DNA of 64,000 nt from an uncultured Candidatus Saccharibacteria bacterium (GCA_964600985.1 CAZRJR010000001.1:45319-109318), one strand, 5' to 3'. Counted from the first letter of the stretch, positions 6,536-62,689 are shown. Notes: generated by a model not told the origin, from the sequence alone. Numbers and translations: made by a program.

Positions 6536-7048
6536 CTACCAGACGAGGTAAGCGTCCCCATGAGGATCGAACGCGAGCCCTGACCCATCGATGGGCCGGA
6601 CTTCCACCTCGTAGCTGGGACGAGTCTCCTGGCTGACGAAGGGCTGCCTGAGCCACTTCTCGATACGGAGGCCGAGGTCGTTCGAGATGGCCTGCCTGCG
6701 CATCTCGTAGCCGTCTTCGCAGTCCGGGTCATCTTTGCGGACCAGCTCTGTCGCATCTCGATCGCCTGGCTGGACGTCGATCGCCCAGTCGTCGTGGTTG
6801 AAGTCCCACGGGTGCTGCCGGTGAACGCGGATCTTGACCTCGCCAGGGGTGATCTTGGTCTTGTCGACCTGACTCACGGCACGAGCAACCATCTTGGGCA
6901 GATCCAGAAGGAACCGCCGCGTGAGCTCGAAGCTGTAGGGGAAGCCCGACGTAGTGCATCCAGGGACTTGGCTGCGCCACTTCGCCTCATGGATCTGGTC
7001 TTCATCGGGCAGCCAGCTGGCTGCACAGAAAACATCAACTACGGGCAT
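6536..7048 (-). CDS. hypothetical protein on GC-rich insert
   Basis: 170-aa ORF in a visibly GC-rich block (~6400..7060) that lies between att-like repeat copies A and B. No motif recognised. Confidence 0.5.
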   Translation of the reverse strand: MPVVDVFCAASWLPDEDQIHEAKWRSQVPGCTTSGFPYSFELTRRFLLDLPKMVARAVSQVDKTKITPGEVKIRVHRQHPWDFNHDDWAIDVQPGDRDATELVRKDDPDCEDGYEMRRQAISNDLGLRIEKWLRQPFVSQETRPSYEVEVRPIDGSGLAFDPHGDAYLVW

Positions 7049-26333: not shown

Positions 26334-26825
26334 TCAGTACGACCAGTAGTCGCCGTAGTCGGAGAACGGGTCGTCGTAGTCGTAGCGACGGTGGCCGACG
26401 TCGACGAGGCTGAAGGCGAAGTCGCCTTCGTCATCAGACTCCATCTCGCGAGCGGAGGCCTCATCGTCTCGACACCACCAGCAGAGCTTCTCGCCACCAC
26501 AGGTGATGTACCAGGTCTCGGCGTCCTCATCGAACACCAGGTGATGCAGGCGCTCGTCCTCGAGGACCTGCATCCGGAAGAGGCGCCGACCGAGCTCGTC
26601 GTGGGTGCGGTAGTCGTCGACGTGGATGCCGAGATCGAAACGCACGGTGACCAGGGCCTTCTTGCCGGGGGTGAACGAGACACCGGGGCCGTTGAACGGG
26701 CCGTAGGGTCCTGGGATCGGCAGCACATCGACGAGTGTGCGGTCGAGGATCTGGAGGGTGACGTTGACCTGGCGCTCAGCGGCGAGCAGCAGGTCTTTCG
26801 AGGTGCCCTCGTACTCGATGGACAT
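26334..26825 (-). CDS. hypothetical acidic protein on high-GC insert
   Basis: It starts at the internal Met (MSIEYEG...) of ORF 26334..26915. Over a sampled 60 nt the minus frame shows the canonical high-GC codon pattern (GC3 ~85% > GC1 > GC2 ~40%), whereas the antisense ORF 26391..26894 does not. Two Cys pairs are present (CGG...CWWC). Confidence 0.45.
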   Translation of the reverse strand: MSIEYEGTSKDLLLAAERQVNVTLQILDRTLVDVLPIPGPYGPFNGPGVSFTPGKKALVTVRFDLGIHVDDYRTHDELGRRLFRMQVLEDERLHHLVFDEDAETWYITCGGEKLCWWCRDDEASAREMESDDEGDFAFSLVDVGHRRYDYDDPFSDYGDYWSY

Positions 26826-26946
26826 GTTTTCCAGGAGGCACATGGCCGTCCCTTTCATGATCGTCTTGGATGGGTGCGAACTGACAGAACTTAACGTTCG
26901 TCGTAATAATAGCATAAAAATAATAAATTGTCAAGACTGGTGATCC

Positions 26947-27624: not shown

Positions 27625-28107
27625 TCAGCCGCCGTCGACCGGTTGGCCGACGCTCACCTCATTGGTCGAGGTGTCCACCACCTTGCACTTCACACCCTTG
27701 GTGTACGGGGTGGCGTGCTTGGCGTCCGGCGGCAGGATCTGGGCCTGTCGGCACGTTGTGACGACCGTGTGGCCATCCGTGGTCTTCACCACCTTCCCGT
27801 GGGTAACCATCACGTGGTCGCATCTGTTGCCATCCGCGAAGGTCGCGTCGAGGTTCAGGCTGTGCGCCTTCATGTAGGCGCGGTAGCCAGCCTTGATGGC
27901 ATCCTGCTGCCCCTGGCACTTGCCGGCGTTGTAGCCGTGGTTGAAGCCATCCTCGTAGCGGTGGGTGTGATACTGGGAGGCCCAGTAACACATTCCGGCG
28001 ATGATCGCCAAGCTGATCACAAGGATCGGCACGGCGGGGATGTAGGGGCGACTGCCAGTCACCCCATCGGTGCCCTTGCGGGCGGTGTCTGGTGTGGGGG
28101 AGGCCAT
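27625..28107 (-). CDS. hypothetical membrane-anchored/secreted protein on high-GC insert
   Basis: 160 aa with an N-terminal TM/signal segment (IPAVPILVISLAIIAGMCYWA) and an extracytoplasmic domain with 4 Cys. Its composition is more protein-like than the low-complexity Ala/Gly/Arg-rich antisense ORFs. Confidence 0.4.
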   Translation of the reverse strand: MASPTPDTARKGTDGVTGSRPYIPAVPILVISLAIIAGMCYWASQYHTHRYEDGFNHGYNAGKCQGQQDAIKAGYRAYMKAHSLNLDATFADGNRCDHVMVTHGKVVKTTDGHTVVTTCRQAQILPPDAKHATPYTKGVKCKVVDTSTNEVSVGQPVDGG

Positions 28108-57139: not shown

Positions 57140-57904
57140 ATGAGCGCTCAATCAGTTGACCCACTTTTAAACAAGAAGGTTATTAAGCTAGGTTTTCAGG
57201 CTTCGAATGAAGAACTGGAGCGCGTAAAAAAAGCCACTGAGATTGAGCGCGAATGGTGGTCTGAAAGAGAAGCGTATAGTAGTTTTTCTGCCATTGAAGA
57301 GGACGTAGGCCGGGGTCATATGACCAAGGTCGAGGGCGCCACGAATTATCTTCCGGCAATGAGATTCAGGAATCCAAAGCTCAAGATACAGTATCCACCA
57401 TACTTAGAAGGTTTAACCAAGGCGCTATTGGATGAACTGACGCAAGAATGGCGAACGCGTATGGATGCCGAGGATCAGCCTAAAGATGTACGACTTGCCG
57501 TAGCTAACCTAACAATTACCCAGGCTTATCAAAAAGAACTTGCCAAAAGTGGAAAGTTGGCCATTTTAGGCAATCCACATGTTCGTGGCGTGGCGTTTGA
57601 TATCGATGCTAGTGCATATTATTTTGGCGATACGCCAGTTAATGATCGACAAAATCTTAAGAGTGAATACGACAAGCGCTTCACTGACGCTCAGGCAGCT
57701 TCGTATGTTCCGCCGTTTAGGAATTTTGATGAACACCTCACACGACGACCTTTGGAGATATTTGGGGAAGTTCTACAACAAGCCAAAATAGACGGAAAGC
57801 TTAACTTTGTTCTTGAATATCCTGGAACTAATAATGCAAGCTACCATATTTGTCGTAATCCAAACTATAAGCCTAAACTTGACAGTATGGCTCGCGGAGA
57901 CTAA
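57140..57904 (+). CDS. hypothetical protein
   Basis: 254-aa ORF that immediately follows the murF-like stop, with no motif recognised. A terminator follows it. Confidence 0.5.
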   Translation: MSAQSVDPLLNKKVIKLGFQASNEELERVKKATEIEREWWSEREAYSSFSAIEEDVGRGHMTKVEGATNYLPAMRFRNPKLKIQYPPYLEGLTKALLDELTQEWRTRMDAEDQPKDVRLAVANLTITQAYQKELAKSGKLAILGNPHVRGVAFDIDASAYYFGDTPVNDRQNLKSEYDKRFTDAQAASYVPPFRNFDEHLTRRPLEIFGEVLQQAKIDGKLNFVLEYPGTNNASYHICRNPNYKPKLDSMARGD

Positions 57905-57997
57905 ACTAGCCCCATGAAATCACAACAACTCAACCTGCTGGGTCTCTTGCTTCGCTCGCCACGGTAGGTTTGTTGTATACCATATAAAAGATCTCCA

Positions 57998-58017
57998 GAC
58001 CGCCGCGAGGCGGCTTT
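57998..58017 (+). terminator. Rho-independent terminator candidate
   Basis: A ccgcc-gcga-ggcgg GC hairpin is followed by TTTTT, ~90 nt after the stop at 57904. Confidence 0.5.
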
Positions 58018-58263
58018 TTGGTTCGCCCGATTGCTTCCCAATATCGGTCTGGAAATCACATTTGCAGACCGAAGCAGGAAACAACCACGAGCTTGGAGGC
58101 TCACATGTGTAATGACGATCGCTCTAAGGCTCGCCGTGACCACAACGGCGCAAGCGACGAGGACGGAGTGGTCTACCCGCAGGCCGAGAGCTGCCCGCAC
58201 TACGGCACACCTTCTCGGGCTCTGCCGCCTGATCACCGCAACTACCCCGCCTGATCGGCCCTG

Positions 58264-58295
58264 CCAGCTGGGGTAAGTGGCAAGTGCCACTTACC
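58264..58295 (+). promoter_or_regulatory. perfect 14-bp-stem hairpin in leuS leader
   Basis: In ctggggtaagtggc-aagt-gccacttaccccag the 14-bp arms are exact reverse complements. A T-rich tract follows (cacctcacttttact), 50 nt upstream of the leuS ATG. Confidence 0.4.
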
Positions 58296-58344
58296 CCAGC
58301 ACCTCACTTTTACTATTAACCAATAAGTAGGCTACAATACAGGT

Positions 58345-61300
58345 ATGAGTAATCAATCCCCCAAATACAATCCGCAAGACATCGAACCCAAATGGCAAAA
58401 GATTTGGGATGAAACTGGTGTGTACACCGCTAACTTAGAGAGTGATAAGCCCAAGTACATTGCCATGAGTATGTTTAACTACCCTAGTGGTGCCGGCATT
58501 CACATTGGCCACGCTATGAACTACACCATAAGTGATGTAAAGGCGCGCTTTAAGCGCCAACAGGGATTCGAAAGCTATCATCCGGTTGGCTGGGATGCCT
58601 TTGGTTTACCGGCCGAAAACTATGCCATTAAGGCAGGTGTGAGTCCACAAGAGAGCATGGCTACCATCATCCCGAGCTATCATAAACAATACAAGGCCAT
58701 GGGTTGGAGCAATGACTGGGAGAAGGAAATATCTACCCACTTACCCGAATACTACAAGTGGACTCAATGGATATTTAGCCAAATGTACAAGCACGGCTTG
58801 GCGTACCAAGACAAGCGGATGCAGTGGTGGTGCAACAAGTGTCAGACTGTGCTTGCCAACGAGCAAGTGATAGACGGCAAATGCTGGCGGCACGACGGCG
58901 CAGATGATCCTATGGTAGAAAAAAAGGAAGTAAAGCAGTGGTTCTTTAAGATTACCGAGTATGCCGATGAGCTCTTAGAAGCAACTGATGATCTTGATTG
59001 GACTGAGAGTGTGAAGACAGCACAAAAGAATTGGATCGGCCGGAGCGTGGGAGCAGAAGTTAAGTTTGCAGTGGAAGGCAGCGAAAAATCTATTACAGTC
59101 TTTACTACCCGAGCCGATACACTCTTTGGTGCTACATTCCTAGTACTTGCTCCTGAGCATGAGTTGGTAAATAAACTTACCACTCCAGAGCAAAAGGAGG
59201 AAGTTGAGGCGTATATTGCGGCTGCCGCTCTTAAGACCGAGGTTGATCGCCAAGCAGCCAAGCAAAAAACGGGTGTATTCACTGGGGCGTACGCAATTAA
59301 TCCAGTAAATGGTGAGAAGGTGCCAATCTGGATAGCGGACTACGTGCTAACTGGTTACGGTACAGGTGCAATTATGGCGGTGCCAGCGCATGACGAACGA
59401 GACAATGAATTTGCAAAGAGGTTCAATCTGCCAATAGCTCCAGTTATTAAGCCGGTGACCGGCGTTCCTCAGGAGAACCCCGAGTACCGGAAGAGTATTG
59501 TTGCAATCGTATACAATCCGCGAACAGAAAAGTACCTTTCGATTAATTGGGGCAAAGATGGTGGCAATATATTCATCGGTGGCGGTCAAGAAGAGGGTGA
59601 AGATATTGTGACAACTGCCTTGCGCGAGATTCGTGAAGAAACAGGTTATCAGAATGTCAAACATACTGCTACTACGCCAACAGACATTGAGCACCACTAC
59701 TTTGCACATAGTAAGAGGGTAGCTAGAAGGATTGATTGTTCTGGATTACTATTTGAGCTAGAAGATGATCAACAATTTCAACAATCACTTGAGGCTGATG
59801 AACAGGGTAAATTTACAATTGATTGGCTAACAAAAGACGAAGTACTAAAGAGTGTTAAAGATGAACTACATAGAACATGCTTTGAACAGCTTGTATTAGA
59901 ACAAGTTTTTACAGCAGAAGGCCTGCTTATTAACTCAGGGGCATATAACGGCATGACTACGAGTGAAGCGCGTGATAGGATAATTACCGATTTGGCAGGC
60001 AAGATTGGTGATGAGGCTGTTGACGTTGAGTACACTACTAATAGCGAGCCGGTCTTTATACAGAAAGTTTCAGGAAGTGCCGTAAAGAAAGATCAGCCCT
60101 TTGTAGAACGTGAAGCTATTACGGCAATCGTAAAGCATTGGAAAGAAGATAAATATATTGGCCTAAAGTGGAAGCAAGTTGATTGGGAGACGTTGATTAC
60201 AGGTGGAGTTGAGGATGGCCAAACTCCAGAGGAAGCTGCTATCGCTGAGATTCGTGAAGAAACAGGTTACTTACACCCAGTTCTTAAGCAGGATTTCGGC
60301 ACAATGCATGCTAAGTTCTTCCATGTTCCAAAGAACGAGAACAGACACGCACACTTCTCTTGCTTGTACTTTGAATTGGCCGATGGGGTGAGAGAGGAGA
60401 TTGCTGAAGAAGAACAGCAGAATCATGAAGTTGTATGGTTGAGTGCTGAAGAAATGACAAGTTTTAAGCTACCAGCTTCGCACCGGTATATGTGGGATCA
60501 ACTTAGAGGGAATTCTTCTGGCTTAGCTGCGGAAAAAGTTAATTACAAAATGCGTGATTGGTCAGTATCACGTCAGCGCTACTGGGGTGCGCCGATACCG
60601 ATTGTGAATTGTGAAAAGTGCGGAACAGTATTGGTCCCAGAGGACGAGTTACCAGTAGAGTTGCCAGAGCTTACCGACTTCGTGCCAAGTGGTGATGGCC
60701 GCAGTGCCTTGGCCCGTGCTACTGATTGGCTCAACACTACCTGCCCTGATTGTGGTGGGCCGGCTGAGCGAGAGACGGATACCTTAGACACGTACATTTG
60801 TTCTAGTTGGTATATGTTCCGCTACTTTGATCCGCGCAATCAGCAAGAGATCTTTGAATCCAACGTAGTTAACAAGTGGATGCCGATCGATTTTTATAAT
60901 GGTGGCGATCATGCTACTGCCCATATGCTTTATGCACGGTTTGTAACCCGATTCTTTAGCAAGATTGGTTTGGTGAACAGCCCGGAGCCCTTTAAGCAGT
61001 TCCTATTTAACGGGAAGGTGCGGGCCAGTGATGGTAGCGCGTTTTCGAAGTCTAAGGGCAACGGCATAGATCCACTCGATGTAATTAATAATGGCTATGG
61101 CGCTGACGCTTTGCGCATGTACTTGATGTTCGCGGCTCCATTAGAGATTGACGCTCGTTGGGATCCGCAAGGGGTGCCGGGTACATTCCGGTTCCTCTCG
61201 CGGTTGTGGAACTTGGTTAGTGAATACCAAGCTGCGCCACAGAGTGAGTTGAGCGAAGCAGCGGGCCGGACAGTACTTAGTCCCATGCATGCTATGGTCA

Positions 61301-61743
61301 AAAAAGCTTCGCAAGATATCGAAGAAAACCACTATAATACTGCCATTGCGGCGATTATGGCTGGGCTCAATGACTTGTATAAGCAAAGGAGCACGCTAGT
61401 GCGAGGCAAGGTGTGGCAGCAAGCGCTCGAGATGATCGTGGCTACTGTAGCGCCATTTGCGCCACACATTGCGGATGAGTTGTGGCAGCAGCTCGGTCAC
61501 AGCAGCAGCGTGCACAAGGACACTTGGCCGAAGTGGGATGAGGCATACCTTGTGAGTGACGTTATCACGATCGTGGTGCAAGTAAATGGTAAGCTACGTG
61601 GTGAGTTCAGTGTATCTACCGATAGTACAAAGGAGGACTTGGAAGTAGAAGCGCGCCGCTTGGCCGAAGAAAAGGGGTGGATAAAAGATGAGGTTAAACG
61701 AGTCGTGGTCGTGCCGGGGAGGCTGGTTAACATAGTAGTTTAG
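58345..61743 (+). CDS. leuS: leucyl-tRNA synthetase carrying two in-frame Nudix-box-containing insertions
   Basis: 1132 aa. The HIGH region is YPSGAGIHIGHAMNY, the CP1 editing region has TTRADTLFGAT and VPAHDERDNEFAKRF, and NSGAYNG, MRDWSVSRQRYWGAPIP and the KMSKS-like FSKSKGNG are present, with the C-terminal domain. Two extra segments carry Nudix boxes (see findings). Confidence 0.9.
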   Translation: MSNQSPKYNPQDIEPKWQKIWDETGVYTANLESDKPKYIAMSMFNYPSGAGIHIGHAMNYTISDVKARFKRQQGFESYHPVGWDAFGLPAENYAIKAGVSPQESMATIIPSYHKQYKAMGWSNDWEKEISTHLPEYYKWTQWIFSQMYKHGLAYQDKRMQWWCNKCQTVLANEQVIDGKCWRHDGADDPMVEKKEVKQWFFKITEYADELLEATDDLDWTESVKTAQKNWIGRSVGAEVKFAVEGSEKSITVFTTRADTLFGATFLVLAPEHELVNKLTTPEQKEEVEAYIAAAALKTEVDRQAAKQKTGVFTGAYAINPVNGEKVPIWIADYVLTGYGTGAIMAVPAHDERDNEFAKRFNLPIAPVIKPVTGVPQENPEYRKSIVAIVYNPRTEKYLSINWGKDGGNIFIGGGQEEGEDIVTTALREIREETGYQNVKHTATTPTDIEHHYFAHSKRVARRIDCSGLLFELEDDQQFQQSLEADEQGKFTIDWLTKDEVLKSVKDELHRTCFEQLVLEQVFTAEGLLINSGAYNGMTTSEARDRIITDLAGKIGDEAVDVEYTTNSEPVFIQKVSGSAVKKDQPFVEREAITAIVKHWKEDKYIGLKWKQVDWETLITGGVEDGQTPEEAAIAEIREETGYLHPVLKQDFGTMHAKFFHVPKNENRHAHFSCLYFELADGVREEIAEEEQQNHEVVWLSAEEMTSFKLPASHRYMWDQLRGNSSGLAAEKVNYKMRDWSVSRQRYWGAPIPIVNCEKCGTVLVPEDELPVELPELTDFVPSGDGRSALARATDWLNTTCPDCGGPAERETDTLDTYICSSWYMFRYFDPRNQQEIFESNVVNKWMPIDFYNGGDHATAHMLYARFVTRFFSKIGLVNSPEPFKQFLFNGKVRASDGSAFSKSKGNGIDPLDVINNGYGADALRMYLMFAAPLEIDARWDPQGVPGTFRFLSRLWNLVSEYQAAPQSELSEAAGRTVLSPMHAMVKKASQDIEENHYNTAIAAIMAGLNDLYKQRSTLVRGKVWQQALEMIVATVAPFAPHIADELWQQLGHSSSVHKDTWPKWDEAYLVSDVITIVVQVNGKLRGEFSVSTDSTKEDLEVEARRLAEEKGWIKDEVKRVVVVPGRLVNIVV

Positions 61744-61767
61744 TCCCTCTCATGCCAAAAAGCCTTC

Positions 61768-61795
61768 GACTCCGCCCCGGAAGTGGGGCGGAGTC
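61768..61795. terminator. bidirectional Rho-independent terminator
   Basis: gactccgcccc-ggaagt-ggggcggagtc is an 11-bp perfect stem. The flanking aaaaag on the plus strand gives a T-tract for the minus-strand gene, and gttgttgt follows on the plus side, weaker for leuS. Confidence 0.7.
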
Positions 61796-61812
61796 GTTGT
61801 TGTACGAGCTGC

Positions 61813-62172
61813 TCAGGCCTGTGCTTGCACCTTGTACTCGCGTTCCTGGGGGTTCTGAGCGTGGAACTCCACAGCCTTCTCGAACAGCAAGATCTCGGTC
61901 TCGGAATCGCGTGCCAGGAATGCGTTGAGCCAGTCCTTCCAGCTTGCTTCGAACTCCCTTGGCAACGGGTAGGTGTGGTCGATGAACGAGAAAGAAGCCT
62001 TGATCTGCGTGGAGAGCGCGGTGTCCTCCACCTCTTCGAGAGACTGCTTGCCGCACATCAGGTGGCAGATCCTGTTCAGTTCTCTGATATCGGTCCACGC
62101 CACCCAACCGGTTGAGGGGCTAGTGAGGAAGCCCAGGGCTTCTGCGAATGTTCCTTGCAACTGCTTGGCCAT
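61813..62172 (-). CDS. hypothetical protein on GC-rich insert between leuS and yceD
   Basis: 119 aa from the internal Met (MAKQLQGTFAEALGF...). The ORF-track start at 62313 lies in AT-rich intergenic sequence. The gene is visibly more GC-rich than its flanks. Confidence 0.5.
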   Translation of the reverse strand: MAKQLQGTFAEALGFLTSPSTGWVAWTDIRELNRICHLMCGKQSLEEVEDTALSTQIKASFSFIDHTYPLPREFEASWKDWLNAFLARDSETEILLFEKAVEFHAQNPQEREYKVQAQA

Positions 62173-62248
62173 TCCTGGCCTCCTTTGGTCCACAGGTTCA
62201 TTAGGTAGAACGAGAGTATTATACAATTCATTGGTCGGTTGAGCAATA

Positions 62249-62689
62249 ATGAGGCATTGCAAAGAATGCGAAAAAATGCTACAATTCGTAGCGAAGAATA
62301 TGCTAATAAACATTCTGGATCTAAGCCGAAAGCCCGAGGGAACTCAAGATACTCGAGCCATTCACATTGACACTTTAGAAGACGTAGACTTGGCAAAGCC
62401 CTTTGAGGCCCAGGTAGAAGTTATGGTAATAACGCCACAGCACTTTTCGGTGCACACACGAGCTAGCCTGGTGGTAAACCGCACGTGTGATCGTTGCCTT
62501 AAACCCTACGAGTACCCACTGAGCCTGGACTTTACCCAAGAGTTTGCCGACGACAGCGATGACGCCGACTGGCCTATAGTAAACAACCAGATCGATGTGC
62601 TTGAGCCGATTCGCCAAGAAGTCTTACTAAACATTCCAATGAAAAGCTTGTGTTCACCAGATTGCAAAGGCATTCTTGAGCCACACTAA
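62249..62689 (+). CDS. yceD: YceD/DUF177 family protein (23S rRNA accumulation protein)
   Basis: 146 aa with paired Cys motifs (CDRCLKPYEY ... CSPDCKG), positioned immediately upstream of rpmF, which is the conserved yceD-rpmF arrangement. Confidence 0.65.
   Translation: MRHCKECEKMLQFVAKNMLINILDLSRKPEGTQDTRAIHIDTLEDVDLAKPFEAQVEVMVITPQHFSVHTRASLVVNRTCDRCLKPYEYPLSLDFTQEFADDSDDADWPIVNNQIDVLEPIRQEVLLNIPMKSLCSPDCKGILEPH

Follow-up and report, generated by a model that had tools for sequence, protein, structure and literature searches.

Several kinds of described system come close to the locus analyzed here: orphan small genes that reduced genomes carry in variable intergenic slots; horizontally acquired islets, which are expected to deviate from their host in composition, to leave empty sites in close relatives, and to carry a donor signature, a mobility apparatus, or boundary repeats; leader-peptide and T-box attenuators upstream of aminoacyl-tRNA synthetase genes; and small helical proteins of the immunity, antitoxin, or anti-defence type. 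We compared these with two GC-rich patches that flank leuS, the leucyl-tRNA synthetase (LeuRS) gene, in a 64,000-nt stretch of DNA (the window) from an uncultured Candidatus Saccharibacteria bacterium (GCA_964600985.1, CAZRJR010000001.1:45319-109318). One patch precedes leuS, and the other lies between leuS and yceD and encodes a 119-aa protein that we call p119. A preliminary description of the sequence had proposed that both were acquired as foreign high-GC DNA. We found instead that the patches are probably two separate and complete small protein genes, which the common ancestor of a narrow Saccharibacteria clade already had and passed on vertically to its descendants. This reading is carried by gene structure, conservation, purifying selection, covariation in the hairpins, synteny, and gene age.

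The upstream patch contains a 49-aa small open reading frame (ORF) on the plus strand at 58105 to 58254 (product MCNDDRSKARRDHNGASDEDGVVYPQAESCPHYGTPSRALPPDHRNYPA). It is preceded by a Shine-Dalgarno sequence, GGAGG (58095 to 58099), 5 nt before the ATG. The exact 49-aa product is present as a called gene in NCBI/Logan records. We found that the small ORF, both hairpins of the upstream patch, and the leuS promoter can be aligned across the window and three related loci (L084, L091, and L087). The orthologues are 47 aa (L084), 44 aa (L091), and 43 aa (L087) long and have the core YPQAESCP(H/Q)YGT in common (YPQAESCPHYGTPS); the 44-aa orthologue was called independently by the JGI gene caller. 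The Shine-Dalgarno sequence and ATG are kept across the aligned species, with purine-rich counterparts of GGAGG in all three relatives. Within the 11-codon core PQAESCPHYGT, all seven of the sites that vary among the four species are third codon positions (a chance of about (1/3)^7 by our own arithmetic), and six of the seven are synonymous. Indels of 5 and 1 nt between the window and L084 restore the reading frame, and the ratio of nonsynonymous to synonymous substitution rates (dN/dS) is ~0.35. Such codon-periodic substitution and frame-preserving indels across species mark 58105 to 58254 as protein coding. We read the upstream patch, from these signatures, as a complete small protein gene of a 43- to 49-aa family that is easily missed by annotation. 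Neither the small ORF nor the other ORFs of the upstream patch had a match in Pfam, NCBIfam, PHROGs, or PADLOC. We rejected a 129-aa minus-strand ORF at 57901 to 58290 because it overlaps the terminator upstream, is junk-like in composition, and was not among the called genes.

The downstream patch encodes p119 on the minus strand at 61813 to 62172. The ORF is present as had been described, with a Shine-Dalgarno sequence, AGGAGG (62179 to 62184, minus strand), 6 nt before its ATG. A putative −10 box, TATAAT, lies at 62218 to 62223 on the minus strand, in the divergent spacer between p119 and yceD. The plus-strand sequence at this box, TTATACAA, is invariant in four species; a promoter scan passed over the box because of its weak −35 element. 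On the other side, a hairpin at 61767 to 61796 is predicted to be a bidirectional terminator common to the convergent leuS and p119 genes. Its GC-rich stem is followed by AAGGCTTTTT on the minus strand and TTGTTGTACG on the plus strand, and its core (CCGCCCC...GGGGCGG) is kept in L084, L091, and L087. The bidirectional terminator of the preliminary description is thus terminator-like on both strands, but its stem has 12 to 13 bp and not 11. p119 is monocistronic in the window.

We estimated substitution rates between the window and L084. For p119, dN is 0.56 and dS is ~1.2, giving a dN/dS of ~0.47; the ratio is ~0.19 for yceD and 0.015 for leuS. The LeuRS (N-terminal 400 aa), NusB, and Nudix proteins of the two loci are 91 to 93% identical, and their dS is above 2.8 or cannot be estimated. 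Because p119 has a dN/dS of ~0.47 while the synonymous sites of conserved genes are saturated, we consider p119, on its sequence divergence, to be a real coding gene that is fast evolving and older than a deep split. An antisense ORF at 61783 to 62115 is not conserved, and we rejected it as a by-product of the GC richness of third codon positions.

Both patches are GC rich, as had been claimed, against 49.7% for the window, in which 200-bp intervals have a standard deviation of 5.5%, a 95th percentile of 58%, and a 99th percentile of 63.5%. The upstream patch reaches 64.0% at 58100 to 58299 (about the 99th percentile) and has 60.1% over 58030 to 58300. The 440-nt spacer that contains it (57905 to 58344) has 55.5% GC, the highest among the spacers of more than ~150 nt in the window, the others being mostly at 35 to 52%. 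The downstream patch (61745 to 62175) has 58.2% GC, and its 200-bp values of ~57 to 60% are near the 95th percentile; by GC alone it is unremarkable, as 39 runs in the window reach at least 57%. These downstream values would fit ordinary compositional fluctuation with small ORFs that arose by chance, as would the tendency of GC-rich DNA to yield long chance ORFs, several of which overlap in 57901 to 58290. However, both ORFs are conserved with codon-position-specific substitution, the ribosome-binding sites, promoter, and terminator are kept, and the fold of p119 is predicted with confidence (see below). The conservation data have already refuted this explanation, and we give it almost no credence.

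Two stem-loops frame the small ORF. The 5′ hairpin (58044 to 58072, plus strand), found by an inverted-repeat search, precedes the ribosome-binding site; its arms are TCGGTCTGGAAAT and ATTTGCAGACCGA, and a conserved block, GAAGCAGGAAACAACC, follows it. Three of the four species retain this hairpin, L087 with a single compensatory change of a U-A pair to C-G, and L084 has a different local hairpin at this position. In the hairpin columns, 91% of the cells pair, compared with 17 to 52% when the partner columns are slid. The 3′ stem-loop of the predicted small-ORF transcript (58267 to 58300, plus strand) is a perfect palindrome with 16-nt arms that precedes the leuS promoter. A perfect hairpin had been noted here and does exist, although not quite as first placed (14 bp at 58264 to 58295). 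All 13 pairs that we tested form in all four species, and three pairs carry substitutions in both partners. Wobble pairs occur as G·U on the sense strand only; the stem-loop therefore appears to be an RNA structure with the same orientation as the small ORF and leuS. Its GC-rich 16-bp stem and covariation are those of the stem-loop of an intrinsic terminator, and with reservations taken up below, it is probably a terminator or an insulator before the leuS promoter.

The same features could belong to a cis-regulatory leuS leader, either a T-box or riboswitch RNA or a leader-peptide attenuator in which the 49-aa ORF controls the 58267 to 58300 stem-loop and read-through into leuS. In favor of a leader, the patch immediately precedes an aminoacyl-tRNA synthetase gene, the region folds much better than shuffled sequence (z = −4.7), and structural selection acts on the sense-strand form of the 3′ stem-loop. 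In addition, the last codons of the ORF (58243 to 58253) pair with the 5′ arm of this stem-loop (82% over 11 nt), an alternative that resembles an anti-terminator; in our reading of the alignment, however, this pairing holds only loosely in the other species. A scan with the curated covariance models of Rfam gave no match to known families even at an E value of ≤10: nothing reached the gathering threshold, and we disregarded microRNA-like hairpin noise at an E value of ~1. The ORFs of the four species (43 to 49 aa) have zero or one Leu codon each and so cannot sense Leu-tRNA. The peptide core, moreover, is kept at the amino acid level and changes at third positions only, which is unexpected for a mere leader peptide.

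The leuS promoter also bears on this question. Our promoter scan predicted it at 58309 to 58338 on the plus strand (TTTACT, 18 nt, TACAAT), and it is near-identical in L084. Its −10 box (58333 to 58338) ends 6 nt before the leuS ATG and lies downstream of the patch and its hairpin, so the GC-rich patch is predicted to be upstream of the promoter, outside the leuS transcript, and not a leuS leader segment as the preliminary description had it. The layout is general in Saccharibacteria, including those that have no patch. When we scanned the last 60 nt before leuS at 67 loci (L003 to L085), the strict −10 motif TA[TC]A[AC]T ended 7 to 9 nt before the ATG in 32 and occurred almost nowhere at other offsets. 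In most Saccharibacteria, a −10-like box (often TGTTATAAT) ends 6 to 9 nt before the leuS ATG. These positions suggest that the leuS mRNA is very probably leaderless both in the window and across the phylum. We consider control of leuS by an upstream leader unlikely.

We then considered how old the two genes are and how they are distributed. The local gene order in the window is Mur ligase, DUF5715/C39-like gene, leuS, p119 (minus strand), yceD, rpmF, nusB, and Nudix gene. A homologue search with the leuS product returned Saccharibacteria (TM7) metagenome-assembled genomes as its only relatives. The closest LeuRS relative (P0006, 87% identical over the N-terminal half) is on L084, which also has a 124-aa minus-strand gene between leuS and yceD with 44% identity to p119 (E value, 6e-34). 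A HMMER scan of 1.84 billion representatives identified four more p119 relatives (P0128 to P0131), all small and 42 to 46% identical; we rejected the weak matches P0132 to P0134 as artefacts of Cna_B and FG-GAP repeat proteins. A word-index protein search of 5.8 billion clusters returned the query alone for p119 and for the small ORF, and this search is insufficiently sensitive, as it missed the true orthologue P0125. In all, p119 has orthologues in L084, L086, L087, L090, L091, and L092, with 41 to 46% identity where the LeuRS proteins have 87 to 93%. The family members with enough context (L087, L091, and L092) occupy the slot between leuS and yceD-rpmF-nusB, and the L086 member adjoins leuS. 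Both patches are at the same positions in the closest relatives that we found, L084, L087, and L091. Given these shared positions and the saturated synonymous sites, we concluded that the two units are old, clade-restricted, vertically inherited genes.

In contrast, none of 80 species-representative Saccharibacteria loci has a p119 homologue, and both units are absent from these 80 more distant loci and from the next-closest relative, L085, where the order is DUF2000, leuS, rpmF, and nusB. The spacer before leuS in 75 related loci is typically a few tens of nucleotides, up to 345 nt. The patches are thus extra DNA relative to most Saccharibacteria, and the condition that the preliminary description had set for its own refutation, presence in all relatives, holds for the close ones but not for the distant ones. 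Elsewhere in the phylum, the leuS-rpmF interval (leuS to nusB of L003 to L082) varies from ~260 nt to 4 kb and contains mostly minus-strand orphan ORFs, which are mutually unrelated save for a few close pairs; no YceD was detected in the leuS-nusB interval of these loci, outside the clade of the window. This variable orphan content indicates that the leuS-rpmF slot is hypervariable across the phylum and stable within the clade of the window. Several of the orphan ORFs have an N-terminal membrane helix. Both units are additions relative to other Saccharibacteria, or losses elsewhere, and became fixed ahead of the clade's diversification. They may have entered the common ancestor of the clade by an ancient transfer.

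The preliminary description had gone further and suggested repeated acquisition at intergenic hairpin and terminator sites, in a process that also affected the tRNA-Lys and tRNA-Glu loci; we weighed this as a recent import of foreign DNA. Consistent with such acquisition, both units are missing from the 80 other species and L085, the slot holds unrelated orphan genes in other lineages, and p119 has a G+C content at third codon positions (GC3) 3 standard deviations above that of the window genes. Three other small ORFs lacking Pfam matches also have a GC3 of 0.77 to 0.86. These ORFs, all on the minus strand, are at 6536 to 7048 (170 aa), 26334 to 26915 (193 aa), and 27625 to 28107 (160 aa), near tRNA-Lys/Arg and tRNA-Glu. 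Against recent acquisition, orthologues with saturated synonymous sites are found at the same position in at least five diverged lineages, and the p119 site is occupied, not empty, in all six close relatives listed above. The homology searches and synteny comparison found homologues in the same slot of the clade only, and the slot arrangement is absent from distant loci. Neither the word-index nor the full HMMER searches returned a homologue of either unit outside the leuS-flanking positions. Likewise, tblastn against phages and plasmids and a scan of viral contigs gave no patch homologues, and a metagenome scan with YceD gave one locus, which was irrelevant.

Nor did we find a donor, a mobility gene, a target-site duplication, or a second copy for either patch. 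Compared with the rest of the window, the patches have no similarity to it and no direct, inverted terminal, or flanking boundary repeats. With no such similarity, terminal repeats, or target duplications, we rejected a miniature inverted-repeat transposable element or an insertion sequence as their origin. The hairpins, which had been viewed as preexisting insertion sites, belong to the gene cassettes and covary with them. Recent transfer is already largely refuted, and we consider recent or repeated acquisition very unlikely.

The composition of p119 does deviate from that of its host. We found that its GC1, GC2, and GC3 are 0.54, 0.41, and 0.775, compared with a GC3 of 0.528 ± 0.081 for window ORFs of at least 150 aa. 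The anomaly is limited to third positions, as GC1 and GC2 are ordinary. In the window, L084, and L086, the GC3 of p119 is 0.775 to 0.80, and T occupies only ~8% of third positions; the orthologues of L087 (0.68) and of L091 and L090 (0.54 to 0.56, the level of host genes) have lower values. In a rough two-state model of decay toward 0.52, the saturated divergence would require an ancestral GC3 above 1. The bias therefore seems to be maintained in some lineages and not to be left over from a transfer, and the GC richness of the patches is not a trace of recent transfer.

One further idea is that p119 and the three other GC3-rich ORFs form a distinct clade-specific class whose codon composition is actively held off the genomic equilibrium and that the small ORF and its hairpin could modulate leuS read-through. 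Such a bias might be caused by biased gene conversion where accessory slots recombine, by selection acting on properties of the mRNA, or by repeated allele replacement from an unsampled GC-rich pool, possibly that of an actinobacterial host or its phages. If the idea were true, the GC3-rich class would mark a host-interaction gene set of these epibionts. We regard it as speculative and unlikely.

Returning to the two vertically inherited genes, we propose the following arrangement. After the terminator of the DUF5715/C39-like gene, the upstream unit would begin with the conserved 5′ hairpin, followed by the GGAGG site and the 49-aa ORF. The stem-loop at 58267 to 58300 would end or insulate the small-ORF transcript just before the leuS promoter, and leuS would then be transcribed as a leaderless mRNA. 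p119, divergent from yceD, would have a TATAAT promoter of its own and be translated from the AGGAGG site, and its transcript would end at the hairpin that may also terminate the convergent leuS. The GC richness comes from the third-position bias of p119 in the downstream patch and, in the upstream patch, from Pro/Ala/Gly/Arg/Asp-rich coding sequence and GC-rich stems.

Several points weigh against this account. The promoters and transcript ends are predictions from the DNA sequence, and a search for a small-ORF promoter did not pin one down. No U-tract adjoins the 58267 to 58300 stem-loop: in the window, a T-run begins 8 nt past the stem, and there is none in L091 or L087. Because this adjacent U-tract is missing, the terminator call is uncertain. 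The upstream region is carried by four species only, two of which, L091 and L087, are close to each other, and the three compensatory pairs may therefore reflect a single event. Finally, vertical inheritance of two small genes does not account for a GC3 of p119 that stays so high.

We looked for clues to the function of p119 in its sequence and predicted structure. p119 has no family match in Pfam, NCBIfam, PHROGs, or PADLOC, and sequence and profile searches of the PDB were empty. We discarded a single-sequence AlphaFold2 model (predicted local distance difference test [pLDDT] score, 45). With a six-sequence alignment, AlphaFold2 gave a confident all-helical model (pLDDT, 87; predicted template modeling score, 0.80). 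A Foldseek search with this model against the PDB and viral models gave nothing below an E value of 0.4 and only generic helical matches. The product is thus predicted to be soluble, all helical, and fast evolving and to represent a new family of one Saccharibacteria clade. The residues that are invariant in the family cluster in G-T-x-x-E-A...F-L and P-x-P-x-E-Y...W-x-D-W-L-x-A-F, a pattern that in our view resembles a binding surface more than it does a catalytic site. The small helical fold with no enzyme-like match, the Trp/Phe-rich motif, the rapid divergence, and a tandem duplication in L090 lead us to guess, with low confidence, that p119 acts as an adaptor that binds a partner, with an immunity-like or regulatory role, and not as an enzyme.

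The duplication in L090 (192 to 991) consists of two overlapping tandem p119 paralogues of 149 and 116 aa. No PADLOC or Pfam match was found for the seven p119-family members, and the neighbor in L090 is a paralogue and not a toxin, which does not support a toxin-antitoxin, immunity, or defence assignment. In L087 (7670 to 8336), a 103-aa gene precedes the p119-family member on the same strand; comparison of its product with p119 did not establish homology (hhalign probability, 1.4%).

The genes around the two units have features of their own. The leuS gene (58345 to 61743, plus strand; identified by Pfam and homologues) encodes an 1,132-aa LeuRS with two inserted NUDIX domains. These inserts (PF00293, two stretches) lie between the editing domain and the RDWxVSRQRYWG segment, with REETGY boxes at about aa 440 and 650. 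The LeuRS of L084 has one insert (960 aa), as do many Saccharibacteria proteins (~960 aa), and some have none (~810 aa); two inserts occur in few relatives (L003, L004, and L085). A literature search found no description of this double-NUDIX architecture. The yceD gene (DUF177; 62300 to 62689, plus strand; Pfam YceD E value, 4.4e-17) probably starts at 62300 and not at 62249. Its orthologues begin with MKNMPISILDL, which points to the ATG at 62300, and the window has GCG at the first ATG of the orthologues. A promoter-like sequence at 62257 to 62285 (TTGCAA, 17 nt, TACAAT) would leave a very short 5′ untranslated region or none.

Upstream of the leuS spacer, the DUF5715/C39-like gene (57140 to 57904) ends in a terminator-like hairpin and T-run at 58000 to 58020 on the plus strand (GCCGC-GAG-GCGGC and then TTTTTGG); GGCGGCTTTTT of this terminator is likewise present in L087. 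Where the DUF5715 gene has its 3′ end in the window, L084 has a stretch of at least 330 nt (1 to 330) before the small ORF that contains stops in all six frames and has 53 to 54% GC. This could be a decayed gene or a long noncoding stretch.

Taken together, an apparent sign of recent transfer became two conserved, previously unannotated small-protein families of one Saccharibacteria clade. High GC3 persists across saturated divergence and so, taken by itself, is poor evidence here that a transfer was recent. No major concept is changed by these results. For ultrasmall epibiotic bacteria, they add two candidate lineage-specific functions, a hypervariable slot beside leuS, and a leaderless leuS layout that appears to be general.

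The known systems each match the locus in part. In the upstream unit, as in leader-peptide and T-box attenuators, an aminoacyl-tRNA synthetase gene comes right after a small ORF and a strong hairpin. Unlike them, the unit has no Rfam match and no enrichment in Leu codons, the predicted leuS promoter lies past the hairpin, and the peptide sequence is conserved. The p119 family resembles immunity, antitoxin-type, or anti-defence proteins in its size (~110 to 125 aa), helical content, rapid divergence, and tandem copy in L090, and this is a resemblance only. In contrast to such proteins, p119 has no adjoining cognate toxin gene and no PADLOC, Pfam, PHROG, or fold match to known immunity proteins. 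As in horizontally acquired islets, p119 is small, atypical in GC3, and absent from distant relatives, but the patches have no donor, mobility genes, or tRNA or repeat boundaries and occupy the same locus in every close relative that we found. Like the orphan small genes that occupy variable intergenic slots in reduced genomes, p119 and the small ORF are short, have their own signals, lack homologues outside a narrow clade, and evolve fast, and their slot contains unrelated small genes elsewhere. Orphan genes, however, are usually AT rich or matched to their host, whereas p119 has kept a GC3 of ~0.8 in three lineages despite saturated divergence.

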